Below, piece by piece: positions 8,726 through 58,880 of a stretch of 64,000 bases of DNA. The DNA is from Candidatus Altimarinota bacterium. GTDB taxonomy: Bacteria > Patescibacteriota > Gracilibacteria > JBDHUY01. Position numbers and translations under genes: made by a program. Below the pieces are notes generated by a model, which was not told the DNA's origin, searched no databases, and saw only the letters and a list, made by a program, of their open reading frames with translations. Positions within the stretch are counted from its first letter, which is position 1; the number at the start of each line of letters is the position of its first letter. Location: positions 2,132-66,131 of the forward strand of contig JBDHUY010000011.1 of assembly GCA_039809385.1 (NCBI GenBank), read 5' to 3'.

Positions 8726-8776
8726 GGGGGGACGGGTATTAGGTATAAAGTATTACGTATTATGTATGGGAACAGG
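8726..8776 (+). repeat. GTAT-heptad element, copy 1
   Basis: gtattag|gtataaa|gtattac|gtattat|gtatggg|aacagg, preceded by a G-run. Confidence 0.8.
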
Positions 8777-8865
8777 AAGAAATCTTATGATGAGGATGAA
8801 AAGCTCAATGACAACGATACAATAACACTTCTAGTCAAAATCTCTGATACGCACTCTATTAAAAT

Positions 8866-8914
8866 CTGTCCCTATACTTTATACATAATACTTCATACCT
8901 TATACTCCTGCCCC
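8866..8914 (-). repeat. GTAT-heptad element, copy 2 (inverted relative to copy 1)
   Basis: The reverse complement reads ggggcaggagtataag|gtatgaa|gtattat|gtataaa|gtatagg|gacag. Confidence 0.8.
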
Positions 8915-8918
8915 TATC

Positions 8919-15153: not shown

Positions 15154-15208
15154 GGGGAAGGTATAAAGTATAAAGTATGAAGTATTATGTATTACGTATG
15201 GAGACAGG
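15154..15208 (+). repeat. GTAT-heptad element, copy 3
   Basis: ggggaag|gtataaa|gtataaa|gtatgaa|gtattat|gtattac|gtatgga|gacagg. Confidence 0.85.
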
Positions 15209-15223: not shown

Positions 15224-15349
15224 GACTTTGGACTTTGGACTTTGGACTTTGGACTTTGGACTTTGGACTTTGGACTTTGGACTTTGGACTTTGGACTTTG
15301 GACTTTGGACTTTGGACTTTGGACTTTGGACTTTGGACTTTGGACTTTG
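15224..15349 (+). repeat. Perfect heptanucleotide tandem repeat (GACTTTG)x18
   Basis: 126 nt, 18 identical units, counted directly. It ends 75 nt upstream of the eno ATG. Confidence 0.98.
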
Positions 15350-15389
15350 AACTTCTGTCACAATCTCTTTTCAGCAAGCTGAATTTCAG

Positions 15390-24702: not shown

Positions 24703-24771
24703 AGAAAATAAGAATAAAAAGAGATAAAGTCTCCATCTTTATTCTTCATAAGAGGAACGGGAGGGTCAGGC

Positions 24772-24834
24772 TCTTACAGATAAGCGGTTAGCGGCTAGTG
24801 GTCAGCGATTAGCAAACCAAATGCCTATCTGTAA
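24772..24834 (+). repeat. AGCGGTN heptad block bracketed by TTACAGATA/TATCTGTAA inverted repeat, in the rpsO-pnp spacer
   Basis: agcggtt|agcggct|agtggtc|agcgatt|agcaaac. Confidence 0.75.
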
Positions 24835-24846
24835 AAACCTGAGATT

Positions 24847-24870
24847 CGTGACCCGGGGAATCGGGTCACG
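24847..24870 (-). promoter_or_regulatory. 9-bp stem hairpin in rpsO-pnp intergenic leader
   Basis: CGTGACCCGgggaatCGGGTCACG. Its position is analogous to the rpsO terminator / pnp leader processing hairpins of other bacteria. Confidence 0.45.
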
Positions 24871-24937
24871 CCGTTTCTGTGAAAAATAAAGAAAGAAAAA
24901 TATTAAAAATCTAAATACAAAATCTATTGTATCTAGT

Positions 24938-24992
24938 GGATTTTTGAGATTTGAGATTCATTTGGCATTGGGATTTTGAGATTTGAGATTCC
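24938..24992 (+). repeat. Direct repeat of GATTTTGAGATTTGAGATTC (2 copies, 33-nt spacing)
   Basis: ggatttttgagatttgagattc atttggcattgg gattttgagatttgagattcc. Confidence 0.85.
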
Positions 24993-25007
24993 TGGCAACG
25001 GCAGGCT

Positions 25008-25271
25008 TTATTTCCGGAGATCTAATTCGGCTATGATTTTATTATAGTTCTCGGCGTCGTTGTTTTTCAAGTAGTGCAGAAGTTTGCGGCGTTTACCGAC
25101 CATTTTGAAAAGTCCCTGACGGCTATGGTTGTCTTTTTTATGCAGCTTGAGATGTTCGGTCAGTTCGTTGATACGGGTGGAGAGGATGGCTATCTGAACC
25201 TGGGGGGATCCGGTGTCGGTATCGTGAGTTTGGTGCTTTTTGATGAGCTGCTTTTTATCGTCGTGTTTCAT
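25008..25271 (-). CDS. rpsO: 30S ribosomal protein S15
   Basis: '[49 protein letters not shown]'. Confidence 0.97.
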
Positions 25272-25277
25272 AGTAAG

Positions 25278-26362: not shown

Positions 26363-26385
26363 GTATTTAAATAGGCAGGAAACAC

Positions 26386-26457
26386 GGACGGCAGTAGTAA
26401 GATTTTTTTATTACTGTCGTCCACAACCCTTATCGTGGTAGTGATAAGGTTTTTTTG
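26386..26457 (+). terminator. Tandem hairpins; the second is a canonical Rho-independent terminator
   Basis: First a 15-bp stem, GGACGGCAGTAGTAA/TTATTACTGTCGTCC (2 G:U pairs). Then CCTTATCgtggtagtGATAAGG + TTTTTTT. Confidence 0.8.
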
Positions 26458-26533
26458 GTTTTGCTGAAAAACGCTTTGTTTGACATACGCATGACAAAAG
26501 CATAGCATACAGATACTTTTAATTTTTCTCCTT

Positions 26534-26863
26534 ATGACCACCCAATACATCTCCTCCCGCCAGCTCCTCAGAGAATACAAAAGCATCAAACGACAACAGA
26601 AAATCACCATTGTTATGGAGAGATCCCAGCCAAAAACTATCCTCGTCCCCTTCTCCGAGGAAGCGCTTCAAATCCTGGAGAAACAAATGCAAAAATCAGA
26701 GAAGAATCCCTACCGGAAAGACATAGAGATCCTTGAAAAACATATTAAAATTCACAAAAACTACGATCCCATTCTAGACACAGTACTGGAAAGACTGAAG
26801 AAACCCGGAAAACCTATTCCCTTTGATGAAGTACTGAAATCCATAGAAGCCCTTCCTGAATAA
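26534..26863 (+). CDS. Type II antitoxin (Phd/YefM-like)
   Basis: Small acidic protein 2 nt upstream of a RelE/ParE toxin gene. 'ITIVMERSQPKTILVPFSE' looks like an antitoxin N-terminus. Confidence 0.6.
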   Translation: MTTQYISSRQLLREYKSIKRQQKITIVMERSQPKTILVPFSEEALQILEKQMQKSEKNPYRKDIEILEKHIKIHKNYDPILDTVLERLKKPGKPIPFDEVLKSIEALPE

Positions 26864-26865
26864 AA

Positions 26866-27153
26866 ATGTACAGCATACTCTTTGATCCCTTAGCAGATCA
26901 GGATTTAAAAAAATTGGAAAAGCATCAGGCTTTACGTATTTTGCATACTATCGATAAAAAGCTAAAAGTCGCTCCCCACGAATATGAAAAACCTCTCATA
27001 GGAGTTTTGAAAGGATGGAGGTCTTTAAAAATAAATTCTTATCGAGTCGTCTATCAAGTACAAGAAAACATAATTCAGGTTTTAATATTAGCTATTGGTC
27101 AGAGAAAAGATGACATTATCTATGCAGAAGCAACCAGACGGATAAAAAAATAA
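26866..27153 (+). CDS. Type II toxin, RelE/ParE family
   Basis: 'DQDLKKLEKH...LKGWRSLKINSYRVVYQVQENIIQVLILAIGQRKDDIY'. Confidence 0.8.
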   Translation: MYSILFDPLADQDLKKLEKHQALRILHTIDKKLKVAPHEYEKPLIGVLKGWRSLKINSYRVVYQVQENIIQVLILAIGQRKDDIIYAEATRRIKK

Positions 27154-35782: not shown

Positions 35783-36070
35783 ATGAGTACTGTTATTATC
35801 ATAAAAACCGATCCCAAAATCAAAAAAGAAGCCCAGAAGATTCTCAAAGAGTTTGGACTCTCCCTAAGCGGGGTATTGAACGGGTACCTACGTCAAATTG
35901 TGCGTAACAAAAAAGTAGAATTTCAGCTTGTGACCGAAAACGGTTTTACCGTAGAAGAAGAACAGGCCATGTTGCAGGATATCGAGGAAACCATGCAAGG
36001 TTACAAAAGTGGGAGAGTAAAGGCCTACAAGAGTGCAAAGGATTTACATGATGATATTTTTTCCGAATGA
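35783..36070 (+). CDS. Type II antitoxin, RelB/DinJ family
   Basis: 'IIIKTDPKIKKEAQKILKEFGLSLSGVLNGYLRQIVRNKKVEF' fits the DinJ ribbon-helix-helix pattern. Confidence 0.75.
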   Translation: MSTVIIIKTDPKIKKEAQKILKEFGLSLSGVLNGYLRQIVRNKKVEFQLVTENGFTVEEEQAMLQDIEETMQGYKSGRVKAYKSAKDLHDDIFSE

Positions 36071-36203
36071 AGGTTACCTCACTGTACAGTATCGGAGGGA
36101 CATCAAACGATTCACACACGATCTAAACGTATTGAATGAACCCCCTAACGGTTTGCGCAGGAAGCGTCATTGCGAAGAAGCTTCTTGTTGGCAGTTTCTA
36201 TAA
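36048..36203 (+). pseudogene. Probable truncated YafQ/RelE-type toxin remnant
   Basis: A 51-codon ORF overlapping the antitoxin end: MMIFFPNEGYLTVQYRRDIKRFTHDLNVLNEPPNGL.. ('YRRDIKRF' resembles the F-K-[RK]-D-[IL]-K-[KR] toxin N-terminus). It then runs into the inverted-repeat element and stops. Confidence 0.35.
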
Positions 36204-36315
36204 ATATCTGCTAGACGCAGCAATCTTGGATGCATACCGGCCAGGTGAACATAGATTGCTTCGTCTAGAGCGATTCTTACTTTCAAGGAATGTTAGTGCT
36301 TCCTCGCAATGACGG
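36164..36315. repeat. Nested inverted repeat (MITE-like / long hairpin)
   Basis: Outer arms GCGTCATTGCGAAGAAGC (36164..36181) and GCTTCCTCGCAATGACGG (36298..36315), 16/18 complementary. Inner arms CTAGACGCAGCAATCT (36211..36226) and AGATTGCTTCGTCTAG (36253..36268), 15/16 complementary. Confidence 0.8.
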
Positions 36316-36425
36316 AATCTTTCGCATAGTATGAAGTAAGGAATCCTGATCCTTATACGTTGGTACGAGTAGGTTCTCGTGCCAACGTATTTGGTCTATA
36401 AGATGCATCCGAAAACACCAAGAAC

Positions 36426-36806: not shown

Positions 36807-36818
36807 GAGGAGAGGCAG

Positions 36819-38515: not shown

Positions 38516-40813
38516 TCATTCTACCCCTACCTGCTCACTAAACTGACTACTGATATTATCCTTACTCGTAATCGTCAGTACCACCATGTACGTTCCAGGA
38601 GTCGTAAAAACATGCGTCGGCTTACGGTCGGTAGAAACCGTACCGTCGCCAAAATCCCAGAAGTATTTAGCGATAGGACCATTCGACTCGGTCGGATCAA
38701 ACACCACGCTCAGCGGCGCCGCTCCGGTTTTTACATTGGTTTTAAAGCGAGCCACCACCGGAACCTCGGAGACAACGATATCCTGCGTGGCGGTCTCTTT
38801 TTTGGCATCGTTGGTAAAAACGGTGAGCTGTACTTTATAAACCCCTACCTGCGCAAAGGTATACTGTATCTGCGCCCCGTAGATCTTGGGCGGCGTTCCG
38901 TCGTCAAAATCCCACTGATACTGCGTAATCGTCCCGCCGTTATAGCGCGAAGCCGAAGCGTCAAAAAGAACAGTTAACGGCGCCGCTCCCGAAAGAGGGC
39001 TGGCTTTGATAATCGCCTCCAGAGGTTTGGCTTTGGTTTTAATCAAAATAGTCTGGGACACCTCGTTTTGCTGCGCATCCACAACTTTGAGCGTAACGGT
39101 GCGCTCCCCTTCCTCATAAAAAGTCTGCACGTCAGGCTTGGCGCCCCTGGTCTCGAAATTGCCATCGCCGTCAAAGTCCCACTGATAATCCACGATATCG
39201 TTATCCTTGTCGGTCGAGGCCGAAGCGTCAAACGTCACCGCTAAGGGCACGCTGCCTTCGATCACGGCTCCGCTTGCCCCCTGCTTGAAACTCGGCGTGG
39301 TTTTCAGCTGAATCACCGGCGACGAAGTTTTGCCCTTTACTATGATATCGACCGAAGACGATCCCTGATTGGATTTGTCGTCGGTAAGGGCGAGATTTAC
39401 TTTATAGGTACCCGGTTTTTTAAACGTATGGGTCGCGGTCACCGTCTTCTCCCGCAGAGTATTATCGCCAAAATCCCATTCGTATTTAACGATTTTACCT
39501 GCCGGACTGCGCGATTCGGAGGCATCGAAATTTACAGTCAGCGGGGCATCCCCTTCCATCGGAACTGCCAGAATTGAGGCTTTGACAGTATCGTCGCGTA
39601 CGCCGGTGATCGTAATGACTTTTTCGGCTGTATTGTACTTTTTATCGCGATTTTCAACCCGTAAACGCACCGTATAGGTTCCGATTGTCTCGAACGTATA
39701 GGTAAGCTTGGGCGTTGTACCCTCGTTAAAACGGTTATCGCCGTCGATCTCCCAGGCATACGTGACATCTTTAGGGTCCTGGCTGTTGGGATCGTAAGAC
39801 TCTGAGGCGTCTAATGTTACTGTCAGAGGTGCCTCGCCCTTGTCTTTATCGACGTTGATGACGGCTACCGGCAACAAATAGGCAATCGATATGTTCTTTT
39901 TGAATTGTTGCGTTTTTTCTTCTCCTTTGTTATCAACGGCGGTAATCGTGAGGGTAACCGGATAATTCCCGGCTTTAAATGTTTTGTCGTAATTCCAGCG
40001 CTCTTCCTTGCCGCCGATCCGGTCGCTCTTGCCGTCGCCGGTAAAATCCCAGTCGTACTTTACGATCTCGTAACCGCGGGTAAGTTTATTTTCCAGATTG
40101 GAGGCGTCAAAAATGAGTTCGATGGGCGCGGTGAGACCGGTCGTGACAGCGAGAGGTTCACGCGTTTGCGCATTATAGACCACGATATCCCCTTGAATAG
40201 CCGAATTGCCATCCACCCGTACCTGTCCGATACTGAAAAACGCAAACACCCAGATAACGATATCGACCAGCAGAATCAGGGTTGTAATAAAAATGGCAAT
40301 CGTGGTTTTTCGTTTTCCGGCCTTGTCGTCCTTGTGGGTCAGAATACGACGAAAAATATTGACCACGACAGCGATCAGCAGCAGCATCGAAAAGAATCCG
40401 AAGCTGATATTGACCAGGCTGCTCAGCAGATTTTTGACTGCGGCCGGATCCAGGCCGAGCTGTTTAAAGAAAGGATTGTTCGGATCGCCGTTAAACGCGA
40501 ACACCGAGAGTAAAACGAACAAAACGAAGAGAAAAGCGAATAATCCGAAACAGCCCAAAAAGAAACCGGCTCCGATCTTCTTGCCCTTGACCACTTTTTT
40601 CCCGGCAGGCCTGGTCTGGTTTGGCGCAGCTTGAGTTGCCGGAGTTTCTGTCATAGGCTGAGTCGGTTGAGAAGAAGCAGCATTGGTAACAGGAACAGAT
40701 GTATTAACCTGAATATCCTCTGCCAACGGACCGATATTGTTGGTACCGGGAACGGTATCACCAGAAGCAGGCTCTGGATTTTGAGGCGGAGGATTGGGAG
40801 TAGGCGTATCCAT
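38516..40813 (-). CDS. PKD-repeat membrane protein (disordered N-tail, 3 TM, six PKD domains)
   Basis: Six 'Y.W[DE][FI][DGT]' PKD cores: YDWDFTGDG, YAWEIDGDN, YEWDFGDNT, YQWDFDGDG, YQWDFDDGT, YFWDFGDGT. Pro/Thr/Gln-rich N-terminus. TM segments GFFLGCFGLFAFLFVLFVLLSVFAF and others. Confidence 0.85.
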   Translation of the reverse strand: MDTPTPNPPPQNPEPASGDTVPGTNNIGPLAEDIQVNTSVPVTNAASSQPTQPMTETPATQAAPNQTRPAGKKVVKGKKIGAGFFLGCFGLFAFLFVLFVLLSVFAFNGDPNNPFFKQLGLDPAAVKNLLSSLVNISFGFFSMLLLIAVVVNIFRRILTHKDDKAGKRKTTIAIFITTLILLVDIVIWVFAFFSIGQVRVDGNSAIQGDIVVYNAQTREPLAVTTGLTAPIELIFDASNLENKLTRGYEIVKYDWDFTGDGKSDRIGGKEERWNYDKTFKAGNYPVTLTITAVDNKGEEKTQQFKKNISIAYLLPVAVINVDKDKGEAPLTVTLDASESYDPNSQDPKDVTYAWEIDGDNRFNEGTTPKLTYTFETIGTYTVRLRVENRDKKYNTAEKVITITGVRDDTVKASILAVPMEGDAPLTVNFDASESRSPAGKIVKYEWDFGDNTLREKTVTATHTFKKPGTYKVNLALTDDKSNQGSSSVDIIVKGKTSSPVIQLKTTPSFKQGASGAVIEGSVPLAVTFDASASTDKDNDIVDYQWDFDGDGNFETRGAKPDVQTFYEEGERTVTLKVVDAQQNEVSQTILIKTKAKPLEAIIKASPLSGAAPLTVLFDASASRYNGGTITQYQWDFDDGTPPKIYGAQIQYTFAQVGVYKVQLTVFTNDAKKETATQDIVVSEVPVVARFKTNVKTGAAPLSVVFDPTESNGPIAKYFWDFGDGTVSTDRKPTHVFTTPGTYMVVLTITSKDNISSQFSEQVGVE

Positions 40814-40940
40814 AACAGGGAGAAAATAATGTAGAATCAGGAAGTTAGAATCAAGAATCTAAAAGCATGGCAGAATAATAAGAGAAATTCATGGAAATTG
40901 ATGGAAATTGGTAAAAATGTGTTGCAGGTAATCGTACTTT

Positions 40941-41115
40941 GGGCTGTCAGCGGCCAGTGATCAGCGGTCAGTGGCGGGCCATTAGCATTCATACATCATA
41001 CATCTGTTCTCTTAACTCCTGTCTTGCTGTTGTCAGTCGTCTGTAGGCTGTAAGCTGTCAACGTCAATCATATTCCCTACTCCTAACTCCGTTCTCCCAA
41101 CTCCTGTCTTGCTCC
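40941..41115. repeat. Continuous heptad-register spacer (about 24 units)
   Basis: tcagcgg|ccagtga|tcagcgg|tcagtgg|cgggcca|ttagcat|tcataca|tcataca|tctgttc|tcttaac|tcctgtc|ttgctgt|tgtcagt|cgtctgt|aggctgt|aagctgt|caacgtc|aatcata|ttcccta|ctcctaa|ctccgtt|ctcccaa|ctcctgt|cttgctc. Confidence 0.85.
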
Positions 41116-41119
41116 CCGA

Positions 41120-44100
41120 TCACTCCGAGTGAAGCGAAGAGTCTGTCTCCTGCCCATGCTTATTGGGCCCATTATACGGCAAATTCGGTTTCTTTTGAAA
41201 GGGCTTTGCACCGAACTTTTTATAGGGAGGAGTTGGGCGAGTAAACGGCCGTTGAGAGGAAGAAAGCTGTTTCGTATTGTTATTATTCCCGGGCGGCAGT
41301 TCGGGGAAATTTTGTCCGGGCGGCAGTTCCTGCTCGGCGAAGCGTCCTTTGATTTCGGGAGTATTGAAGTTCGGTTTCGGCGGAAACTTTTTAGGATAGG
41401 GTTTATACGGTTTTTTTTGAAATGGCTTTTTTGACTTCCACGGTTGCGAGGATGTTGGTTTCGACACAGGTTTTTGCGCTTCGGGGGAAGATGGCACCTC
41501 AGGCAAAGTAGTCTCGGAAACCGGGGGGAGATTTGCATCTACGACAGGTGCAGGAGGAGGCAGGGCATCCGGTGTACCTGCAGTACCGGTCGGCTGGTCT
41601 GCACTGTCTGCAACAAGAGGTTCAAACGGAGACGTGGCAATGCCGGAAGTAGGCGGCAGGGAATCGGAGTTGAGAGATCGATCTGGAACAGATGACGCCG
41701 GTTCAGTAGGCGTCAAAAAATCAGGTATGGCGGCATCGGCCGGTTGAGAGACTGGCAGAGGTGTAGGAGGAAATATGCCAAAAGGATCGTCGTTAACAGT
41801 AGGAAAGGAAGAACCGGCAACGGCAGGCGAATCTGAGAAGGAGGGCATGGCCGGAGTTTGAGCAGATGTTGGAGATACTACCCCAGCGAAAGGATCTGGG
41901 GTTGTCGAAGAAGAGGACGTCGAGGCTGCAGGTTGATCTCCGAAAATATCGATATCAAACGGAGAGGCCGGAACACTCGGATTAGACGGGGCAGGATCTA
42001 AGAAAGAGGGAGTAACCGCGGCTGAGGTGGCAAAAGGATCGACGGCTTGCGGAGGAGATGCCGGAGGGTTCTGATTTTTATCGGTACTTCCGAAAATATC
42101 AATATCAAAGGGCGATGGAGATGGAGGCGCGGGAGTATCAAGAAACGTAGAGGGTGTTGGCGGCAACGCCGAACCGAACGGATCGGATGCAGAAATAGAC
42201 TGCGGATCACTCGCACTCGGTCCGGATGAAAAGATATCGGTGTCGAAAGGAGAAGCAGGGCTTGCGGAAGACGTCGGATTCGGGACAGATGTATTCAGAA
42301 AATCAGGCTGGGGCGAAGCAGCAGCTCCAAATGAGCCGGTTTGCTGGTTGGAAGAACCGAAAATATCAATATCAAAGGGCGAAGGTGTTTGCGAAGGGTT
42401 TCCTGTCGCTGCGGATAGTGAAGGTGAAGGTGATGGTGTTGACGCAGCAAATGGATCGCCCGGTGCAGAAGGCTGCGAATTATTTCCCGGTCCGCTTTGA
42501 GAAAAAATATCCGTATCGAAAGGAGAAGAGGCGCTGATTCCGGGAGTAGGCGCATCCCCAAAAGGAGTTGCTCCGGAGGCGACAGGTGGATCTAAAAAGG
42601 AAGGCAAGCTTGCGGAATCGTCGGGAGACGTGCCGGGAGACGGCGGGGAGAAATCCAGAAAAGACGCTGTAGGCGGCGTGCCAGACTCTGGGGAAACAAC
42701 AGGATTTGCAGCAGGCGGAACTGTCCCTTCACTCGAATCAGTCGCTCCTATCTGAAGCCAATCGGGCATCTGGCCTGCCGAAGCCTGAGGAGGTTCGGCA
42801 GGGGTCGCGGGAGCTGGAGGCTCGGCAACTGGTTCGAAGTTCCCATCGGGAGAAGGAATCGGTGTAACGTCGATGACCGAAGGTGGGGTACTCTTGGGAG
42901 GTTCGGGCTTCGAAGATGCCTGAGCTTGGTCGCCTTCGTCTTTTTTACCTGGCCTGAATCGAGAGATCCAACCGGTTACCATACCCCGCAAATCCAGAAT
43001 AAACTCTTCAAAATCGAGATCTTCCCGGTTGGTAATACGTTTATACGCTATAAACGAAACAAACAGCACGATTCCCAGAAACAGGAAAATGCCGATAATC
43101 CAAAGCGCGAACTGCAAAATACCGAAGAGAAAGGACAAAAACAGATTTTCCCCTGCCGGTGCGGGTGATGAAGGGCCTTCTGCTGCTGCTCCGTTTTGAT
43201 TCTCGTTGGTAACAGTGCCCGGTTCCGCATTAAGATTGTCATTGGTATTGGCAGTTTCGGGAGCATTGAGGTTTAGATTAGCATCGCCGTTCTGATTAGA
43301 ATTAGCCGTAAGCACGGGAGTCAGAGAGTCGGCAATCACCAAAAGTACGTTACCTACTTGCTGTTTGGCATCGTCAGGTAATTTCTGACTTTCGGCAACA
43401 GCCGTGCGAGTCTCGTCCAAAGCCTGGGAAACCGCGGCAGCATCGATTCCGTAATTCGACTTAAGCGATATCAGCGCTTTATTGACTTTTATTTTGGTCA
43501 AAGGTTCGGCCTCGGCAATAATATTTTTGATACGCTGAATCGAAGAATCGATATCGATAAACGATTCTTTCAGGTCTAAAATGTTCTGGATATTACCGAC
43601 CAGACGGTCTCTTTGTTCTTGAGTAAGCTGTTCTGCGCGCAGGACCAGCTCCTTGGCCTGTGTCAGTGCGTCCTTGTCACCGCGGGATAGGAGTTCGCGG
43701 ATCTGGTTCTGTAGCTCCTGGGACAGAGAACTCTGCGAGATGGCCGTAACAGCATCGTCGAGATTTTTATTGATAATTTCGGTTTTGGAAGGCTGCGGAT
43801 TAGCATTGAGATTGGCATTTTCGGGCAGGACGACCGCGTCGTCGAAAATAATGGGAACCGTTACCTGATCCATGATATTGTTATCGCCGACAACGGTAAG
43901 CTGTACCTCGATCGGCTGAGGCAAAAAGGTATACGATATGCCCGAACCATTGGTAAAAGAAAGGGTATTTTTATTGTCGATATCGTTATTTTTGATACCG
44001 TCTCCGTCGCTATCCTGAAAAACATTGCGATCGATGCGGTATTCGCGGATTTTACCGATCGAATAACCGCCAAAGAACGTTACCTTGTTTTTTTCACGGG

Positions 44101-47100
44101 TGAGGTGAATCTTCCGGTCAAGTTCATTTACTTCGGGGACGGTAATCAATACAGCCTGTAACGATTTAGACGGATCAAGTTGGACATTCTTAGGCAACTG
44201 CCCTTTGACCAGCGTAACGGTTCGAACTACGTTGTCTTTTATTCCTCCTTTGCCCGTGACGTCGAGTCGCACCTGATAGCTGCCATAGTCGTTAAACGTA
44301 AATTGAGGATTTTCCTCCTGGCTGTCTTTGTCATTTTGAGCGCTGCCATCACCGTCGCTGTCACGCGAAAGATCGAAGTCCCAAGTATAAGAAAGAGGGG
44401 CAGGGCCGCTGGAATTATTGAGAAACAGAACAGTTTTATCGACCTGAGTAAACAGAAAAGCGGCAGTGGCAATACTTTCGGAACGGGGGTTAATCAATAC
44501 CGAAACGTTGCCCTTGTTGCTCAATCCTTGATATTCGACCCGGGCAGTCACATTGTAATTTCCCGGAGTATCGTACACTCGCGTGACATAAGCCCCCGAC
44601 GTCGTATCTTCGAAAGTTCCGTTCCCGTCAAAGTCCCAGGAAATCCGGGCATCGGGAACCGGTTCGCCTTTCGCGTTCCGACCGATCGCGGTAAACTGAA
44701 CCGCTTCGCCAGCCTTGACGCTGGTTTTATTAACGCTGACCTCTACCTGCAGGGGCTCGTTAGCACGGTTTGTTACGGTCAATACTCCGGTATTTTCGCC
44801 CAGCACATCATCGCTCCGCACAACCGCCCCCTCGTTATCGGTCATTTCGACGACAAAACGATAGGTAACGCTCTGACCGCCAAAACCGCGCGTAGGAATA
44901 TTAAACGTGGTAGAAGGAGTGGTAGTAGTACGCACGCTCAGATTTTCTTCGGTACCGTTTTCGACATAAAACCATTTATACGAAACGATTTTGCCGTCAC
45001 GGTCGGTTGCCCCCACGGCACGCACGGCGACTTGCACCGGAGTCAATAGCGACGCAGGCGCGTCCAATACCAGATCGGTGAGCTGAGGAGGCCGGTTGCG
45101 TACAGCGACCAGAAGGGGCGAAGCACTGGCAGTTTTACCCGAATCTCTGTCGGTAATCGTAAGTTGTACCGAAAAACAAGTATTGCCGGACACGTCGTTA
45201 AAACGGTGCGTAATCGTTTTTTTGGTACTGACGGTTCCGTCGCCGAAATTCCAGGAATATTCCAGAAAGCGGCTGGAGCCGTCACGGTTGATAGCACGCG
45301 AAGCGTCAAAACTGGGATTATCGTTACGGGAAATCAGGAGCCCCGGCCCGCCGTTACACAAATTAGGCGTAAGCGGTAACATTTCACCGTTCAAACTATA
45401 GTCGATCAAGGCTACGGGGCTGTCGGCTTCTCCGACATACACATTGGTCGTGGTCGTAGTATCGTTATTATCTTTGTCAAAAACGGTAACTTTGACAGGG
45501 TAAACCCCGGCTGTCTTGAAACGATAGGTATATTGCGTTTTATCCGTCTGCTCTTTCTGTTCACCGAAATCGTAAAGATAAAAGATGGCACCGGGAGCAT
45601 TGACTTTGACGGTAACGTCTTTGCCAACCTGAGTGACCGGCGGATCGATCGTGACATCGGCGCTGAGTACTGATGTAATCGAGACAGTCTGCTCCCGCTC
45701 CACGAAATTTTGCGAAGAATCGGTCACGCGTAATTTTACACGGTATTCTTTGGCTGCCGGAAAACGATATTCTCCCCGGCTGCCGGCCTCGTTCGTATTT
45801 TCCAGCGTAACCGGTGTACCATCTACCAGCCAGGTAAACGAGAGCGTTTCATTTTGATCGGGATCATAAGAATTAGTCGCGTCAAAGACAAACTGATTTG
45901 GATGTCCGACATCTTTCTGTTTGAGAGACAAAGTAACAACCGGCGGCTTGGAAGTCACTTTGACTTGACGAGTATCCTGAACGGTTTTGCCGTCATTATC
46001 CGTGACTTGGAGCAAAGCCGTATAGACACCCGGCGTCTCGAATTTGTAAGTAAAGCTTTCTTCTTTCGTCTCGCGCAGAACTTCACCCGCTCCGGTCGTG
46101 ATTTTCCAGCTGAGCGAATTGACTCCGCTGGGGATCTTTGACGTATTGGCGGCAAAACGGAACGTCGTATCGGTAGTACCTTCTTGGGGGGTAATTGTGG
46201 CCGAGGCGATCGCATCGGCCACCTCGACCGTTATACTTTTGACGATCTTTTGATTTCCGGTATCCGTGAACTGGACCGCAACCTGGTAACGACCGACTTT
46301 GTTATATTTATGCGTTATCGAAACCGGCGTTCCGTTAAAACTCTGACGATTACTGCCATCGCCAAATTCCCAGTCGGTTTTGGCGATATCGAGTCCCACG
46401 GTCGAGCTGGTGCCGGCAGGATCGAAGAGCAGCCCGTCCTGAGCTTCTTTGAGGGTTACTTTGACGAGATCTTCTTGGGTAACATCGACTTGATTGATTT
46501 TTAGCTGAACTGTCGCCAGGGGTGCTTCGGCTTTGACGCTGATGGTAGCATCCCCGGGCAAAACGACACTGTCGCCGCTGGCACTCTTGACTTCCAGATG
46601 CACCACATACGTATTAGGAACCCGAAAGGTTTCCGAGACGTTGGCACCGTTTCCTAAGTCGCGGCGCTGCCCGCTGGAATCGAGATACCACCAGCTGTAA
46701 TTGTTCGTAGGAATCGTATTGTTGGTCGGATCGGAAGAAGAGGCTCCGTTAAAGAGAACAGTGAGCGGAATTGGCCCGGAGCTTTTACTGGCATTGATTA
46801 CCGCACGCATCTGAGGCAGTTTGACTACCTGCTGCTTGAGAGTCTCGATTTTGGTTTGAATGTCACGACCGGTCGAAGAAGAAGGACTTTGCTGGTAAGT
46901 CTGCAGTGCGTCGTCCAGTTCCTGAGCAGCTTGTCCTGCCTGAGAGGTAGGAGGTAATTGTTGAATGATCGGCTGAAGTTGCTCACGATAACGGTCGATA
47001 ATTGTTTTGGATTCGCTTTGGGGACGAGAGCGTAACTCTTGCAACAACTGGCTCAAAATCCGATCCAAATCCTGGGCGGTATTACCGGTAGCGCTGGTAA

Positions 47101-47986
47101 CTCCCCCACTCGAGGAAGTTCCCTGACCGGCATTTAACAATTGTTCCAGTGCGTTCAAAGCTTTTTTCAGATCGTCACTATTTTGAGGACTGGGATTGGT
47201 CTTGAATTTGTCGAGCGCCTGTAAAACCGCCTGTAACTGCTGGGCCGACGCATTCTGGAGCGACGAATCAAGTTGCTTTATGGTAGTCTGTAACTGAGTT
47301 TTAAGTGCGTCGATTTCGCGTTCGAGAGTACCGGTATCGGCGGGCGGATTATTGACGGTGTTATAAATATTATTAATCGTGGGTGCGGCCGGATTGCTGC
47401 CAGTACCGCTACTGCTCCCCGAGGAGCTGGAAGAAGAAGACGATCCGCTTCCCGAAGAACCTGAAGAAGAGCTCGAGGCATTTGAGCCCGAAGAAGAGCT
47501 TGAACTGCTGGTGTTGGTAGAAGTGCTACTACCGGATGGCGGACCGTCGATAACATTGACGAAAAAATTGACGATAGCATAGGAGATCAGAATAATCACG
47601 ATGCCGACGCCGGTAAACACGATCGTCTTTTGAGATTTCTTGACCTCGCCGTCGTTGCCGGCAAAGGCTACCATGCGGAACCCGGCGTAGATTACGATAA
47701 CGACCGCCAACAGCCCCAGAAATGTCAGAAAATAGTTGATGATCGTGGTGACGGCTTTGCGAATCTCGTCGTTTTTTCCCTGTTCGCAAATCGTCGGAAA
47801 TTTCACGCAATCTTCTTCTTCAAGGCCGGGCCCGGTCGGAACACCGTTAAACTGAGCGGAAGCATGCGGAATATGCAAAACAAAGAGCGTTCCAGCCATC
47901 AGCACTAAAAATAATACTCCCTGCAGGCGCCGAAAAAGCGAGGAAAAACGATTCGACAAGTACTGTGAGTTATAATCAAACGACAT
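41120..47986 (-). CDS. Giant (2288 aa) surface protein: signal peptide, pilin-like hairpin module, Ser-rich linker, coiled coil, about 10 PKD/Ig-like domains, membrane anchor, long disordered Pro/Ser-rich tail
   Basis: Single uninterrupted ORF. N-terminal 'AVTTIINYFLTFLGLLAVVIVIYAGFRMVAFAGNDGEVKKSQKTIVFTGVGIVIILISYAIVNFFVNVI'. PKD cores (DWEFGDGS, YSWNFGDGT, ISWDFDGNG, YTWDFDLS...). TM 'FLSFLFGILQFALWIIGIFLFLGIVLFVSFIAYKRI'. Confidence 0.9.
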   Translation of the reverse strand: MSFDYNSQYLSNRFSSLFRRLQGVLFLVLMAGTLFVLHIPHASAQFNGVPTGPGLEEEDCVKFPTICEQGKNDEIRKAVTTIINYFLTFLGLLAVVIVIYAGFRMVAFAGNDGEVKKSQKTIVFTGVGIVIILISYAIVNFFVNVIDGPPSGSSTSTNTSSSSSSSGSNASSSSSGSSGSGSSSSSSSSGSSSGTGSNPAAPTINNIYNTVNNPPADTGTLEREIDALKTQLQTTIKQLDSSLQNASAQQLQAVLQALDKFKTNPSPQNSDDLKKALNALEQLLNAGQGTSSSGGVTSATGNTAQDLDRILSQLLQELRSRPQSESKTIIDRYREQLQPIIQQLPPTSQAGQAAQELDDALQTYQQSPSSSTGRDIQTKIETLKQQVVKLPQMRAVINASKSSGPIPLTVLFNGASSSDPTNNTIPTNNYSWWYLDSSGQRRDLGNGANVSETFRVPNTYVVHLEVKSASGDSVVLPGDATISVKAEAPLATVQLKINQVDVTQEDLVKVTLKEAQDGLLFDPAGTSSTVGLDIAKTDWEFGDGSNRQSFNGTPVSITHKYNKVGRYQVAVQFTDTGNQKIVKSITVEVADAIASATITPQEGTTDTTFRFAANTSKIPSGVNSLSWKITTGAGEVLRETKEESFTYKFETPGVYTALLQVTDNDGKTVQDTRQVKVTSKPPVVTLSLKQKDVGHPNQFVFDATNSYDPDQNETLSFTWLVDGTPVTLENTNEAGSRGEYRFPAAKEYRVKLRVTDSSQNFVEREQTVSITSVLSADVTIDPPVTQVGKDVTVKVNAPGAIFYLYDFGEQKEQTDKTQYTYRFKTAGVYPVKVTVFDKDNNDTTTTTNVYVGEADSPVALIDYSLNGEMLPLTPNLCNGGPGLLISRNDNPSFDASRAINRDGSSRFLEYSWNFGDGTVSTKKTITHRFNDVSGNTCFSVQLTITDRDSGKTASASPLLVAVRNRPPQLTDLVLDAPASLLTPVQVAVRAVGATDRDGKIVSYKWFYVENGTEENLSVRTTTTPSTTFNIPTRGFGGQSVTYRFVVEMTDNEGAVVRSDDVLGENTGVLTVTNRANEPLQVEVSVNKTSVKAGEAVQFTAIGRNAKGEPVPDARISWDFDGNGTFEDTTSGAYVTRVYDTPGNYNVTARVEYQGLSNKGNVSVLINPRSESIATAAFLFTQVDKTVLFLNNSSGPAPLSYTWDFDLSRDSDGDGSAQNDKDSQEENPQFTFNDYGSYQVRLDVTGKGGIKDNVVRTVTLVKGQLPKNVQLDPSKSLQAVLITVPEVNELDRKIHLTREKNKVTFFGGYSIGKIREYRIDRNVFQDSDGDGIKNNDIDNKNTLSFTNGSGISYTFLPQPIEVQLTVVGDNNIMDQVTVPIIFDDAVVLPENANLNANPQPSKTEIINKNLDDAVTAISQSSLSQELQNQIRELLSRGDKDALTQAKELVLRAEQLTQEQRDRLVGNIQNILDLKESFIDIDSSIQRIKNIIAEAEPLTKIKVNKALISLKSNYGIDAAAVSQALDETRTAVAESQKLPDDAKQQVGNVLLVIADSLTPVLTANSNQNGDANLNLNAPETANTNDNLNAEPGTVTNENQNGAAAEGPSSPAPAGENLFLSFLFGILQFALWIIGIFLFLGIVLFVSFIAYKRITNREDLDFEEFILDLRGMVTGWISRFRPGKKDEGDQAQASSKPEPPKSTPPSVIDVTPIPSPDGNFEPVAEPPAPATPAEPPQASAGQMPDWLQIGATDSSEGTVPPAANPVVSPESGTPPTASFLDFSPPSPGTSPDDSASLPSFLDPPVASGATPFGDAPTPGISASSPFDTDIFSQSGPGNNSQPSAPGDPFAASTPSPSPSLSAATGNPSQTPSPFDIDIFGSSNQQTGSFGAAASPQPDFLNTSVPNPTSSASPASPFDTDIFSSGPSASDPQSISASDPFGSALPPTPSTFLDTPAPPSPSPFDIDIFGSTDKNQNPPASPPQAVDPFATSAAVTPSFLDPAPSNPSVPASPFDIDIFGDQPAASTSSSSTTPDPFAGVVSPTSAQTPAMPSFSDSPAVAGSSFPTVNDDPFGIFPPTPLPVSQPADAAIPDFLTPTEPASSVPDRSLNSDSLPPTSGIATSPFEPLVADSADQPTGTAGTPDALPPPAPVVDANLPPVSETTLPEVPSSPEAQKPVSKPTSSQPWKSKKPFQKKPYKPYPKKFPPKPNFNTPEIKGRFAEQELPPGQNFPELPPGNNNNTKQLSSSQRPFTRPTPPYKKFGAKPFQKKPNLPYNGPNKHGQETDSSLHSE

Positions 47987-48007: not shown

Positions 48008-48457
48008 TTATCCCCGTACCGCATTGATCACGGTAGTGACCAGAGCATACGCTATCAGAATAATGATAATACCGGTTAGAATGGCGATGATCAGTTTTGT
48101 CGCTTTTTGGCGATTACCTTCATTATTAAACGATGTGATATACAAAACGCCGGCATAAATAATACCTACTACCGCAATTAGGAAAATGAATCCCAGACCA
48201 AACTGAATCCATCCGAAAATCAACGCGCGGGCATTGGTTGTAGTTGAGACATTTCCCGACAACTCGTTCTTCGTCGCATCGATTCCGGGCTGGATACCGC
48301 ATTCGTCTCCCTGGCAATAGGGATTTTTACTATCGAAAGCCGTATCGGTATTGGAAAAATCCGTATTCTGGGCATGCACGTTCAGTGGTACATGTATCGT
48401 CGACAGCATGCTCCATATAAAGATCATTGCTCCTATGTGAATAATCTTTTTATTCAT
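48008..48457 (-). CDS. T4SS-pilin-like (TrbC/VirB2-like) protein, single module
   Basis: Signal peptide, then 'LIFGWIQFGLGFIFLIAVVGIIYAGVLYITSFNNEGNRQKATKLIIAILTGIIIILIAYALVTTVINAV'. Confidence 0.7.
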   Translation of the reverse strand: MNKKIIHIGAMIFIWSMLSTIHVPLNVHAQNTDFSNTDTAFDSKNPYCQGDECGIQPGIDATKNELSGNVSTTTNARALIFGWIQFGLGFIFLIAVVGIIYAGVLYITSFNNEGNRQKATKLIIAILTGIIIILIAYALVTTVINAVRG

Positions 48458-48524
48458 TTTGATCGAGTATAAACGCCAAATTATTCAGAAAATTATACCA
48501 TATACATCCTCTTCTATACAACGA

Positions 48525-49433
48525 CTATCCCGAATTTAACAACGGTGCGGCAAAAAAGGTGACGATAGTATAGGCGCTGACCAGCAATGCCAGTCCCAAT
48601 ACTACCCACAGGATGGTTTTGCGCGCCTTTTGAACTTTTTGATCGTTCCCAAAATTCACGATCATGTTGATGGCGGCATAGAGCAGCATCAATATTCCCG
48701 AAATCGCGCTGAAACCGAGGATATAATTGACGACTTGCAATACCAGACTAATCGCGCCGGACGGATTGGGATTAACCGAAGTTTCACCGTAGAAATTCTG
48801 AATGAGCGGGCGCGCTATCAAAATCACAATCAGACCGAATGTCGTTGGAATAAATACCCGTTGTAATTTTTTGATCCGGGCCTCGTCGCCCAGGGCCGTG
48901 ATCATGCGTACCCCGCTGATAATGATCACAAAAACGGCGGTGATTGCCAGAAAACTGAGGAAAAAACTCAGGAGCGGATTGACTATCCGTTCGCGAATGT
49001 CGTCCGGAAAATCGCGGATATCGTTGACGGAACGTCCGCTTGGCGTAAAGAAGATTGAGACGATGACCTCAGCTACTTGCATGAGGATCAGACCGAACAG
49101 CAAAATAAAAATACCGGTCAAACTTTTTTTATTCGCATCGGCATTACCGCCGGCGGTCACCATCCGCAATCCCGATATGATGATGAGCAACACGGCTATT
49201 ACCGCGATAAAACTTTTTACCACTCCGGCATAGTAGATCAGAATATCCCGAAGTCCCTGGGCGCCTTCGGTGCTGACCGGAGCATTAAAGGCTTGATCGG
49301 GAGTACCTAAAAGAAAATCAAAAACACTACGCGGATCTTGCTGGGCATAGGTCGCCGGGAGAGCCACACAGCAAAATGCCAATCCTGCCAAAACAAGCGC
49401 TACTGCCAATGGAAAAGAAAAACGCTGTTTCAT
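48525..49433 (-). CDS. Membrane protein with three tandem pilin-like hairpin modules
   Basis: Signal peptide plus 3 units. Examples: VVKSFIAVIAVLLIIISGLRMVTAGGNADANKKSLTGIFILLFGLILMQV and VVNYILGFSAISGILMLLYAAINMIVNFGNDQKVQKARKTILWVVLGLALLVSAY. Confidence 0.7.
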   Translation of the reverse strand: MKQRFSFPLAVALVLAGLAFCCVALPATYAQQDPRSVFDFLLGTPDQAFNAPVSTEGAQGLRDILIYYAGVVKSFIAVIAVLLIIISGLRMVTAGGNADANKKSLTGIFILLFGLILMQVAEVIVSIFFTPSGRSVNDIRDFPDDIRERIVNPLLSFFLSFLAITAVFVIIISGVRMITALGDEARIKKLQRVFIPTTFGLIVILIARPLIQNFYGETSVNPNPSGAISLVLQVVNYILGFSAISGILMLLYAAINMIVNFGNDQKVQKARKTILWVVLGLALLVSAYTIVTFFAAPLLNSG

Positions 49434-50392
49434 AATATTATAGGTGCGGCAAATTTCAGAACTTCGGTAACTACCGTATAGGCAGAATAGATGATCACCA
49501 TAGCAATCAGCGTTCCCTGGACTATTTTGATCCCTTTCGTGCGCAGGGAATCGTTCGCTCCCGAAAAGATAAAATAAAATCCGCCCAGGATTAGTCCGGC
49601 AAATCCGATCGGGACAACAAAAAGAAGCATTAAACGCAGCAGGGATCCGATCACCCCGTGACCTCGTTCGACATCGCCTTCGAAAGCGATACGCTGGAAT
49701 TCTCCGGCCAGGGCAATCACGATCAACCCCAGAATACTCCAGAGTATTTGGCGACGGTACTTCGCGGCAGCATCATCGGCACCGCTGGCACTACTGATCA
49801 CGATTTGGTATCCGCTGATAATAATCGATACGATCGCGACGGTCCCGGCAATGCCCCTCAACGCCGTGATAACGATGCTGATAATATTTTTCCAGTCGAA
49901 CAAACTGGGTTCGTTGAGGCCGGCGCGGGGGACAAACGAGGCGAAAAAGAACTCTCCGACATTCAGGAAGATAAACCCGACCACGGCGTACAAAAGTCCC
50001 AAACGCGCTTTTTTACTGGCTTCGTCGTTAGCGGAAAAGACCATCCGGATACCGAAAAAAAGTATATAAAAAACCGCAACTCCCTGAAACAATATCCGGG
50101 TTGTCGGCAAGGCTTGATTGCGTACAAAATCGTTAAACGTATTATTCCCGTTCGTCGAATTTAATTCCGGTAAACTGGTACCCGGCAGATCAAAAGCTGC
50201 CTGGGTGAGAAAGGGGATCGTAAAAATTCCCGCAATAAAGAGAAAAACCGCTAGGACAAAGAATATGTTCTGCGCTGATCTGGCATTTTTTTCCGAAAGA
50301 AAAGCAGCAAATCGATTTCCCGGAGATCGTAAAACGAAATTCTTCGGAACATGTACGGGTTGGCGACTATGTTTTTGGTATGTGTATTGCAT
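49430..50392 (-). CDS. Membrane protein with three tandem pilin-like hairpin modules
   Basis: 3 units. Examples: VAVFYILFFGIRMVFSANDEASKKARLGLLYAVVGFIFL and FAGLILGGFYFIFSGANDSLRTKGIKIVQGTLIAMVIIYSAY. ATGA overlap with the next gene. Confidence 0.7.
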   Translation of the reverse strand: MQYTYQKHSRQPVHVPKNFVLRSPGNRFAAFLSEKNARSAQNIFFVLAVFLFIAGIFTIPFLTQAAFDLPGTSLPELNSTNGNNTFNDFVRNQALPTTRILFQGVAVFYILFFGIRMVFSANDEASKKARLGLLYAVVGFIFLNVGEFFFASFVPRAGLNEPSLFDWKNIISIVITALRGIAGTVAIVSIIISGYQIVISSASGADDAAAKYRRQILWSILGLIVIALAGEFQRIAFEGDVERGHGVIGSLLRLMLLFVVPIGFAGLILGGFYFIFSGANDSLRTKGIKIVQGTLIAMVIIYSAYTVVTEVLKFAAPIIL

Positions 50393-51526: not shown

Positions 51527-51578
51527 AAGGGGAAAGCAGGTATAAAGTATGACGTAGCACGTATAATGTATGGGACAG
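51527..51578 (+). repeat. GTAT-heptad element, copy 4 (directly after queA stop)
   Basis: aaggggaaagcag|gtataaa|gtatgac|gtagcac|gtataat|gtatggg|acag. Confidence 0.8.
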
Positions 51579-55061: not shown

Positions 55062-55095
55062 ATTGCTGATCGCTGATCGCTGATCGCTGTTTGCT
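55062..55095 (+). repeat. (GCTGATC)x3.5 heptamer tandem repeat
   Basis: attgctgatcgctgatcgctgatcgctgtttgct. Confidence 0.85.
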
Positions 55096-55864: not shown

Positions 55865-55909
55865 CCTGTACATATTACATTATACTTACTACTTTATACC
55901 AGCTCCCCC
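55865..55909 (-). repeat. GTAT-heptad element, copy 5 (abuts the ATG at 55910)
   Basis: The reverse complement reads gggggagctg|gtataaa|gtagtaa|gtataat|gtaatat|gtacagg. Confidence 0.8.
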
Positions 55910-56326
55910 ATGAATATCTATTTTTCCGGTTCCATCGCCGGCGGCCAGGACGATATCCTGATCTATAAAGACATGATCGAATACCTGGGCAAACACGGAA
56001 CTGTGCTAACCGAACATATCGGAGACGCTGAGAAAACATTGGCCGATTCGATGCGCGAACCCGAATTTATTTTTGAAAGGGACGTAGGCTGGGTTAACCA
56101 AGCCGATGTGATCGTCGCAGAAGTCACGCAACCAAGCCTGGGCGTAGGATACGAGCTCGGGTACGCCGATCTTAGCAACAAACAGGTTTTGTGCCTATTT
56201 CGCCCCAAAAGCGGAAAAAGACTCTCGGCGATGGTACGCGGGAACAAGCGCTTTCAAGTTTTCTTTTACGATACTCTGGAGGAGGCAAAAGCCATCTTCG
56301 ATGATTTTTTCACCCCGCTGTCATGA
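55910..56326 (+). CDS. 2'-deoxynucleoside 5'-phosphate N-hydrolase (DNPH1/Rcl)-like, nucleoside deoxyribosyltransferase fold
   Basis: 'MNIYFSGSIAGGQDD...GTVLTEHIGD...ADVIVAEVTQPSLGVGYELGYA'. Confidence 0.8.
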   Translation: MNIYFSGSIAGGQDDILIYKDMIEYLGKHGTVLTEHIGDAEKTLADSMREPEFIFERDVGWVNQADVIVAEVTQPSLGVGYELGYADLSNKQVLCLFRPKSGKRLSAMVRGNKRFQVFFYDTLEEAKAIFDDFFTPLS

Positions 56327-57629: not shown

Positions 57630-57778
57630 CACAAATCGCTAAATCCTACTATCAAAATCCTAAACAAATTCGAAATACCATTACTCAAGTTACAAACCTT
57701 GCTCGCAGTTTAATATTTCTGATTTCGTATTTGTGATTTGTTTCGAATTTAGGGTTTAGTATTTCGGATTTTAGGTAT
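57630..57778. repeat. Strand-asymmetric word spacer: A/C-rich words then their reverse-complement T/G-rich words
   Basis: The left half has cacaaat, aaaatcctaaa, aaattcgaaa, cgaaatacc. The right half reads tttctga|tttcgta|tttgtga|tttgttt|cgaattt|agggttt|agtattt|cggattt. Confidence 0.7.
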
Positions 57779-57800
57779 ACGTTGACGAAGTACCGTGCCA

Positions 57801-57837
57801 CTTGATACTAGATACTTTATACTAGATTCCCTGCCCC
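57801..57837 (-). repeat. GTAT-heptad element, copy 6 (abuts the ATG at 57838)
   Basis: The reverse complement reads ggggcagggaatcta|gtataaa|gtatcta|gtatcaa|g. Confidence 0.7.
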
Positions 57838-58731: not shown

Positions 58732-58734
58732 TAG

Positions 58735-58830
58735 AGAGAAGGGAGTTGGGACATGGCTTACAGTCGAGTGACAACAGCTTACAGCAAAACAGAAGTGAGG
58801 AGAACGGAGTGAGGAGAAGGGAAAAAACAC
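58735..58830 (+). repeat. Word-block element related (inverted, rearranged) to 41000..41115
   Basis: Blocks shared with the reverse complement of 41000..41115: ggagttggga; gagaacggagtNaggagNaggga (24/27); acagcttacagc; tgacaacagc. Confidence 0.75.
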
Positions 58831-58880
58831 CCCTGTCAGTCATTCCCAAGCAAGCATGTCATTCCTGCTAAAGCGAGAAT

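Follow-up and report, generated by a model that had tools for sequence, protein, structure and literature searches.

The STRR elements of the cyanobacterium Calothrix, which Mazel et al. are said to have described in 1990, reportedly consist of the heptamers CCCCAGT, TTGGTCA and CAACAGT. Why a length of seven nucleotides is favoured in bacterial non-coding DNA, and whether such arrays act at all, has been a question since the cyanobacterial reports of that year. Here we analyse a spacer built largely of heptamer arrays in a 64,000-nt stretch of contig JBDHUY010000011.1 (hereafter the window). The spacer (40814..41119, minus strand, 306 nt) separates the stop codon of a giant gene (41120-47986, minus strand, 2288 aa, with PKD domains and a weak T4SS-pilin match in Pfam) from the start codon of a second gene, the PKD gene (38516-40813, minus strand, 765 aa), its limits being set from open reading frames (ORFs) and Pfam. 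Several related systems have been described. Three heptamers are cited for Calothrix (PCC 7601) in PMC4692102. According to later summaries of Mrazek, Guo and Shah (2007), heptanucleotides are the most abundant long simple sequence repeats (SSRs) in most of the repeat-rich bacterial genomes, and a contact of ~7 nt with the polymerase was proposed to favour slippage (PMC4679880, PMC4692102). Rehm et al. (2015) reported ~185 arrays of the GGGAATC type in each Xanthomonas genome; they are intergenic, mostly of ~4 units, and either perfect or heterogeneous, (GGGANTN)n. Positions 1-4 of these units are conserved and the others variable, the arrays sometimes form inverted pairs, and they occupy the same gene junctions in sister species with varying length and sequence, the situation in Nostoc being analogous (PMC4692102). 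MacGregor (2015) described rows of 2-6 copies of TAACTGA right upstream of starts in Shine-Dalgarno-poor genomes; they are found in marine Beggiatoaceae, some Cyanobacteria and Bacteroidetes, and a nucleic-acid-binding reader was proposed (PMC4679880). Comparable rows also serve as protein sites: omega2, the ParB of pSM19035, requires an unbroken run of four or more 7-bp heptads, whose orientation does not matter (PMC9499535), and ParG reads 4-bp boxes (ACTC) parted by AT-rich spacers (PMC3130281). A survey of short tandem repeats across life leaves heptamers unmentioned (PMC12699852), and our literature search for genomes of the candidate phyla radiation (CPR) with heptamer repeats found no paper.

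An earlier reading of the letters alone (the sequence-only reading) had parsed the segment 40941-41115 of the spacer into about 24 heptads, a parse which could be reproduced, in phase 6. The lag-7 match in this tract is 0.518 as compared to 0.262 in 1000 dinucleotide shuffles (z 7.4), none of which is as high, and z is 5.3 at lag 14 and 4.8 at lag 21; over the whole spacer the lag-7 z is 7.3. A rough gene map drawn from long ORFs leaves 7.3 kb, 12% of the window, as intergenic DNA. In this pooled intergenic DNA the lag-7 z is 8.9, with an equal z at lag 14, and it is still 5.2 after removal of the spacer and of an array at 15224-15354, whereas the coding DNA of the window shows period 3 only and is depleted at lag 7 (z -8). 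Under a strict criterion (28-nt segments with at least 68% lag-k matches, k = 4 to 12) six tracts were found for k = 7, all of them intergenic, and zero or one for each other k. Similarly, when 4-mer cores were sought that occur three times with constant spacing, period 7 yielded 145 matches, 144 of them intergenic, at ~20 loci, as compared to 0-7 matches per period at periods 5, 6 and 8-12. The intergenic periodicity of the window is genuine and greatly exceeds chance, and it is a property of intergenic sequence only and of period 7 only. Since it exceeds the shuffles and survives removal of the top loci, the hand parsing was not cherry-picked. The other loci named along with the tract (8736, 24782, 51539, 55062 and 57715) are genuine heptad arrays as well, and the description of the tract as a succession of related 7-mers, non-coding and one of many such loci, holds.

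The internal organisation of the spacer departs from that reading. Along the direction of transcription, a GGAGnnn array of ~6 units (41073..41115, minus strand; CTCCnnn on the plus strand) begins 4 nt past the giant-gene stop codon. It is followed by an ACAGnnn array of ~5 units (41024..41063, minus strand; nnnCTGT on the plus strand), which is a strict lag-7 tract with its CTGT core repeated three times, and by two perfect copies of GTATGAT (40989..41004, minus strand; TCATACA on the plus strand), a two-unit member of the GTATnnn family for which Tandem Repeats Finder (TRF) gives period 7, 2.3 copies and 100% matches. Next comes an AGCG/AGTG-nnn array of 4 units forming a 14-nt higher-order repeat (40947..40974, plus strand; TRF period 14, 92% matches), which reads RCTGRYC along transcription and RCUGRYC in the sense (minus-strand) RNA. 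A period-10 repeat found by TRF, GAAATTGATG x 2.7 (40884..40910, plus strand), is not a heptad array. An ATTCnnn array (ATTCTTG ATTCTAA CTTCCTG ATTCTAC; 40831..40865, minus strand), outside the segment first parsed, lies just upstream of the PKD start codon, and a pyrimidine-rich leader leads to the ATG. Superimposed on these arrays is a 33-nt direct repeat (plus strand) with copies at 40996..41028 and 41081-41113, which are 82% identical. The two copies are offset by 85 nt, out of register by 1, and a 20-nt repeat in the tract has a spacing of 104 nt; neither distance is divisible by 7, so the same sequence occupies two registers. Lag-7k matching within the tract falls to background by lags 35-42, so that coherence extends over ~5 units, and because unrelated units have no defined boundary, a common register can always be drawn through adjacent arrays. 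The claim of a single register over ~24 heptads is thus not borne out. That heptads fill the spacer is true in part: arrays account for ~162 of its 306 nt, and the period-10 repeat takes up a further part. What the tract contains is, more accurately, four or five short arrays and one segmental duplication that has diverged.

Two ORFs at this locus were considered as hidden proteins and judged spurious. The first, of 51 aa (40837-40992, minus strand), spans repeat arrays which are not conserved in the orthologous spacer of the closest relative (L205, below), and the second, of 101 aa (41129-41434, plus strand), is antisense to the C-terminus of the giant gene. This C-terminus is a basic, K/P/N-rich tail, conserved in type in the giant proteins of two more distant relatives (L206 and L207), which end in the same manner.

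The arrays of the window span all ages, from a perfect 18.7-copy array through perfect 2-4-copy arrays to degenerate ones with 14- and 21-nt higher-order repeats (TRF), and at least six different cores, mostly non-G-rich, coexist. The 18.7-copy array, (GACTTTG)n (15224..15354, plus strand; TRF 99% matches, score 255), is located upstream of the enolase gene and is a candidate for copy-number variation between cells. It lies 70 nt upstream of the enolase start, right after a GTATnnn row. An AGCGnnn array (24783..24814, plus strand) is present in the rpsO-pnp spacer. Here rpsO (~81 aa, minus strand, roughly 25030-25272) precedes pnp, and the leader region (24703-25272) carries a GC-rich hairpin at ~24851-24872 together with AGCGnnn and TTTGAGA heptad rows. 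The same family, as AGCGATC on the minus strand, is represented by (GCTGATC) x 3.6 between convergent genes (55064-55095, plus strand; TRF at 55065..55095), and a degenerate ATTTnnn array was identified by TRF and core recurrence at 57715..57771 (plus strand). A GGAG/ACAG composite at 58732..58835 (plus strand), starting right after a stop codon at 58731, is a paralogue of the one in the tract: the GGAGnnn array at 41073-41115 is 92% identical over 25 nt to 58792-58823 (plus strand), and the ACAGnnn array at 41024-41063 and the segment 58759-58785 have in common GACAACAGC / GCTTACAGC.

GTATnnn stands out most clearly as a family: its six copies, each of 4-6 units, occur in both orientations and have flanks of the form GGGG...GTATGGG-ACAG; three GTAT cores spaced 7 nt occur 16 times in the window as compared to 0.12 expected. 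A five-unit element with the flanks GGGG..GTATGGG-ACAG (8736..8770, plus strand) abuts the greA start as CCCC-ATG on the other strand, and an inverted element (8871..8905, minus strand) forms with it a pair that folds into a ~50-bp stem, as RNA or DNA. A six-unit element (15161..15202, plus strand) lies between tRNA-Ala and the enolase gene, another (51540..51574, plus strand) precedes the start codon at 51607 by 33 nt, and the remaining two (55865..55899 and 57798..57829, both minus strand) abut the start codons at 55910 and 57838. The inverted rows bracket the greA spacer (8727-8917), their outer GGGG/CCCC ends touching the upstream stop region and the greA ATG. This spacer does not qualify as a miniature inverted-repeat transposable element: it has inverted ends, but no target-site duplication was visible by eye. 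The remaining four GTAT elements of the window stand singly, the sequence between arrays differs in two spacers of a low-GC bacterium (L155, below), and the tract itself has no inverted ends.

The host was placed from its proteins. Its PNPase is ~51% identical to proteins of diverse phyla, and for its enolase a single relative reaches 76% identity, a few reach 62-65%, and all others are below 60%. Homologues of the 765-aa PKD protein carry the names Peregrinibacteria, Gracilibacteria and Patescibacteria, which together with the T4SS-pilin (PF18895) genes suggests a CPR bacterium; by these affinities the host is probably Peregrinibacteria-like. A cyanobacterial host is ruled out by the CPR homologues of the PKD protein and by the PNPase identities. 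Exact look-ups of the window proteins matched no other contig, and a second assembly of this species was not found. The closest relative is represented by two contigs of one Logan sample (SRR33557406), L081 with the enolase and L205 with the PKD gene (65% identity), which we take as one organism by assumption. This relative has intergenic period 7 as well (L081, z 4.9). Rows are seen in L081 at non-orthologous sites (AGCGATT AGCGGTC AGCGGCT AGCA; TTTGAAC TTTGAAT; ATTCTAT ATTCCTG; AAATnnn), with an AGCG family row at L081:11110 and an ATTC family row at L081:6847. The orthologous spacer in L205, where the contig ends inside (GTATTAA) x 3.4, continues with GCTAACC GCTAGTC, ACTTTGT ACTTTGA, TTTTCAT x 2, a C-rich leader and the ATG; its families and their rough order are like those of the window, and the sequence is barely alignable. 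AGCG, TTTG/GACTTTG, ATTC and GTAT arrays thus occur in L081 and L205 and are absent from relatives at 48-64% identity. The density of the families is 0.36 per kb in the window and 0.41 in L081 plus L205, as compared to 0.05 in the 48-64% relatives and 0.04 in unrelated control loci (1.27 Mb).

An operon of three T4SS-pilin-like genes (48008-50392), the giant gene and the PKD gene is conserved in L206 (2442-12253), and the giant-PKD gene pair also in L207 (1-6725). The giant-PKD junction in L206 is 12 nt and without heptads. In L207 the annotated gap is 173 nt, but it reads as coding from an ATG at ~4384, so that the true gap is probably ~6 nt, and it too has no heptads. The near-abutting, heptad-free junctions in both relatives show the heptad-rich spacer to be derived, an insertion between two cistrons.

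Arrays of this type are found well beyond the closest relative. When metagenome contigs were scanned for five GTAT cores at 7-nt spacing, there were more than 120 loci among the matches listed, where a few chance matches would be expected for 20 fixed bases by a rough estimate. Plain microsatellites are frequent among these loci, and so are core-plus-variable rows, which often form inverted pairs; outside the seed arrays they hold 242 other period-7 clusters as compared to ~90 per other period. A JGI contig among them (L086) carries GACTTTG, TTTGAAA and ATAC rows, with the same cores as in the window (2248-2268, 4102-4133, 4800-4825, 6862-6896 and 8535-8565). It derives from a CPR bacterium of the Microgenomates group, its FtsH being 92% identical to a named protein of a metagenome-assembled genome (MAG), so that a second CPR class shows heptad arrays. 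In a low-GC bacterium (L155), at least four consecutive spacers (1885-2055, 6947-7083, 8435-8675 and 9720-9880) carry, between the stop of one gene and the ribosome-binding site of the next, a TAGTnnn row, ~90 nt of non-conserved sequence and an ACTAnnn row. The exact GTAT array pattern is not present in the first 84 comparison loci, and a Patescibacteria control locus (L007) has no period-7 signal, which shows that the feature is not universal in CPR. The negative-control loci were distant genomes among the matches listed for the window PNPase. Two of them, from Clostridia MAGs (L056 and L053), have 214 and 84 period-7 core matches, far above the other controls.

The tract is in our view made up of several short tandem arrays of heptanucleotides in partial decay, a class known as long SSRs with 7-nt units or as short tandemly repeated repetitive (STRR) sequences. 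Its origin would lie in in-register slippage, point-mutational decay and dispersal of a few families, a reading to which we assign a probability of about 0.65. Arrays would be born and resized when strands slip in register or when 1-3 units are exchanged unequally, would then decay through point mutation, and would disperse to other spacers as members of few sequence families. Such arrays, together with one diverged 85-104-nt segmental duplication, would have inflated an ancestral ~10-nt junction between two presumably co-transcribed surface-protein genes to the 306-nt spacer. We infer slippage as the generating process, and likewise that the tract as a whole has no required function. Serial birth and decay of heptamer microsatellites, one of two explanations offered by the sequence-only reading, is accordingly the best-supported origin, the whole spectrum from perfect to degenerate arrays being present in the window. 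Mismatches in the tract's own arrays are not concentrated at particular unit positions (p 0.13-0.42), as expected of decaying arrays.

Several observations weigh against so simple an origin. When 15 arrays are pooled, mismatches are somewhat concentrated by unit position (p 0.005). In the GTATnnn family the core has 5/120 mismatches as compared to 41/90 at positions 5-7 (30 units; Fisher 3e-13), a count partly ascertained through the core itself, and the three copies found blindly by TRF show 0/64 core mismatches. Pure neutral slippage also fails to explain the conserved flanks and the 4-6 units of the GTATnnn copies. Two genomes with no more than 76% enolase identity have the same cores at sites that are not orthologous, and the order of a GTAT array followed by a GCTG array is kept in the orthologous L205 spacer. 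Only GTATnnn, and not the arrays of the tract, shows such a conserved 4-nt core clearly. Because of this core, the families common to two diverged genomes and the inverted pairs, we keep open a selected role at the protein or RNA level, which, all forms taken together, we consider a minority possibility.

The foremost form of such a role takes up the other explanation offered by the sequence-only reading, a recognition lattice for a DNA- or RNA-binding protein. The arrays, or at least those with a conserved 4-bp core and a variable 3-bp spacer, would here be rows of sites 7 bp apart for a small cooperative DNA-binding protein, by analogy with ribbon-helix-helix proteins such as omega2 or with ParG, and its binding near starts or promoters would repress or insulate transcription. 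The GTATnnn elements speak for this, with a near-invariant core and variable positions 5-7, 4-6 contiguous units in both orientations, conserved flanks, and three copies abutting start codons; the families common to the window and its closest relative, the inverted array pairs that bracket spacers in the window and other genomes, and the omega2/ParB heptads (PMC9499535) and ParG boxes (PMC3130281) as precedents are also in its favour. However, at least six cores would demand several proteins or a very loose specificity, the tract's own arrays lack a significant split into core and variable positions, and a long perfect array of 18.7 units is unexpected for an operator. Known lattices of this kind are plasmid operators or centromeres, not features of dozens of chromosomal spacers. 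A scan of ten small window proteins revealed possible ribbon-helix-helix proteins only among toxin-antitoxin components (the RelB antitoxin and a ParE-linked small protein), and no candidate global binder, the RelB antitoxin being the sole ribbon-helix-helix type detected. We therefore regard such a recognition lattice as unlikely. The same grade applies to its broadest version, in which the 4-nt cores every 7 nt (GTAT, AGCG, GGAG, TTTG) of some CPR bacteria without Shine-Dalgarno sites would be a genome-wide regulatory or insulating lattice and not slippage debris, its rows being read cooperatively by small DNA- or RNA-binding proteins, often as inverted pairs bracketing spacers.

A role in the RNA was also considered. 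The sequence-only reading held that the tract is not a repetitive extragenic palindromic (REP) hairpin, and this is supported by the lack of inverted repeats in 40800-41130 and of any fold better than shuffles: the spacer RNA has z -0.08, and +0.8 and +1.0 with short flanks. The spacer shows no terminator- or promoter-like excess, and Rfam gives no match in 40750-41200 up to E 5 and, over the full window, tRNAs alone. The two 50-nt ends of the spacer nevertheless pair in the sense RNA at -35.5 kcal/mol (z -3.2 to -3.4; reached by 2/500 shuffles), as compared to only -19 kcal/mol in the antisense (z -1.3 to -1.6), which indicates that G-U pairs contribute. In this view, the purine-rich GGAG array right after the giant-gene stop would pair with the pyrimidine-rich ATTC/CUCC leader of the PKD gene; a terminating ribosome would then open the stem and free the PKD start, preserving translational coupling across the insert. 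The pairing is the second strongest of 19 spacers. The strongest is that of the greA spacer (8726-8918), where the inverted GTAT pair (fold z -5.7, duplex z -8.3) has the same layout of stop, arm, loop, arm and start; the genes lack Shine-Dalgarno sites and have pyrimidine-rich leaders, and the ancestral genes almost abutted. On the other side, the whole-spacer fold is at shuffle level, the significance is marginal after 19 tests, and only the two outer arrays would be accounted for, not the period-7 organisation. Most heptad-rich spacers have no end pairing, so that the pairing in this spacer is a lead and not a general rule. Translational coupling of this kind is in our estimate quite improbable.

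Still more doubtful is that the GTATnnn rows are promoter arrays, stacks of -10-like hexamers (TATAAA, TATAAT, TATTAT; TATACT on the other strand) giving short-leader or leaderless transcripts, the two GTATGAT units of the tract then acting as an internal promoter of the PKD gene. Five of the six GTAT elements precede a gene on one side or both, and for three of these the distance to the ATG is no more than 10-14 nt. TATACT occurs 14 nt before the ATG at 57838, and in several further genes a TATAAT stands 6-8 nt ahead of the ATG. However, promoter-like (sigma-70-type) matches are at chance level overall and no -35 partner is evident, the facing pair 8736/8871 would consist of convergent promoters, and the tract is composed mostly of GC-rich AGCG, GGAG and ACAG arrays, to which the idea is inapplicable. 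Chance, hand-picked parsing or an assembly artefact, to which the partial failure of the single register lends some colour, is practically dismissed by the complete separation of the tract from its 1000 shuffles, by the persistence of the window signal without its top loci and by the agreement of independent assemblies (Logan for L081 and L205, JGI for L086 from another CPR bacterium).

Some further features of the window were noted beside the arrays. Almost none of its genes has a Shine-Dalgarno sequence, and the ~10 nt before the ATG are pyrimidine-rich (ttttct, cccccc, ctcctc), for example at 8726-8740, 24703-24715, 36807-36818 and 40814-40830. TATAAT-like hexamers 6-8 nt before the ATG are present at the starts 19587, 21080, 49433 and 50392, which suggests leaderless transcripts. 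The spacer 36071-36425 between convergent genes, downstream of a gene for a RelB-family antitoxin (35783-36070), has fold z -6.4 on the minus and -3.7 on the plus strand; it has neither period 7 nor an Rfam match, and by its predicted fold it may be an undescribed structured RNA. The plus strand of 26363-26533, which is without heptads, gives fold z -3.6. In the region 26534-27153, a 109-aa protein without a match in Pfam precedes a ParE-family toxin (26866-27153).

The repeats of this spacer are not a new category of feature. The view that period-7 organisation belongs to no known bacterial feature class is contradicted by the intergenic heptanucleotide repeats published for Calothrix, by Mrazek (2007), and for Xanthomonas/Nostoc and Beggiatoaceae, and for annotation such spacers should be labelled heptanucleotide repeat arrays. 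They also break short-read assemblies, as seen from the L205 contig that ends inside one. What the window adds is a new and very different host, a CPR bacterium without Shine-Dalgarno sites, with L086 as a second CPR class. It also adds several coexisting families, a core/spacer pattern in GTATnnn that goes beyond simple decay, and some arrays that form spacer-bracketing inverted pairs. The GTAT core, the cross-genome families and the inverted pairs are the part most worth following.

Comparison with the known systems places the tract among them. As far as the survey of Mrazek et al. is reflected in later summaries, the window resembles its SSRs in that tandem 7-nt units are over-represented as compared to other lengths, mostly intergenic and patchy across lineages. 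In contrast to those long and perfect repeats, the arrays of the window mostly have 2-6 units, are heterogeneous and belong to several families per spacer, and the host is a CPR bacterium, a group that by the same summaries lies outside the survey. With the cyanobacterial STRR sequences the window has in common several heptamer families at dispersed intergenic loci, conserved among related genomes, although its host is not a cyanobacterium. Identity with STRR1-3 was rejected, as CCCCAGT, TTGGTCA and CAACAGT are nowhere in tandem in the window. The GGGAATC / GGGGA(C/T)T arrays of Xanthomonas and Nostoc find their parallel in the GTATnnn family and in the comparison between the window and L205, but there one G-rich family with G-quadruplex potential dominates, whereas the window has at least six mostly non-G-rich families and no tandem GGGAATC. 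The TAACTGA repeats are similar as short heptamer arrays before start codons where Shine-Dalgarno sites are rare. They consist, however, of a single heptamer in one preferred orientation, while the window has many cores in both orientations, also after stops, and no tandem TAACTGA. The omega2 and ParG lattices, in which direct or inverted units are read cooperatively, offer a working model of how a GTATnnn row might be read; the GTATnnn rows have at least four contiguous units with a conserved core in either orientation, while the arrays of the tract show no significant split into core and variable positions. Those lattices occupy 1-3 plasmid sites beside the gene of the binder, unlike the dozens of chromosomal spacers of the type seen here, and WATCACW is not found in tandem in the window. 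In every feature tested, namely 7-nt head-to-tail units, dispersed non-coding loci and families common to relatives, the window matches the heptanucleotide-repeat class. We therefore assign the tract with high confidence to the known class of intergenic heptanucleotide repeats, here in a new host, an uncultured CPR bacterium.

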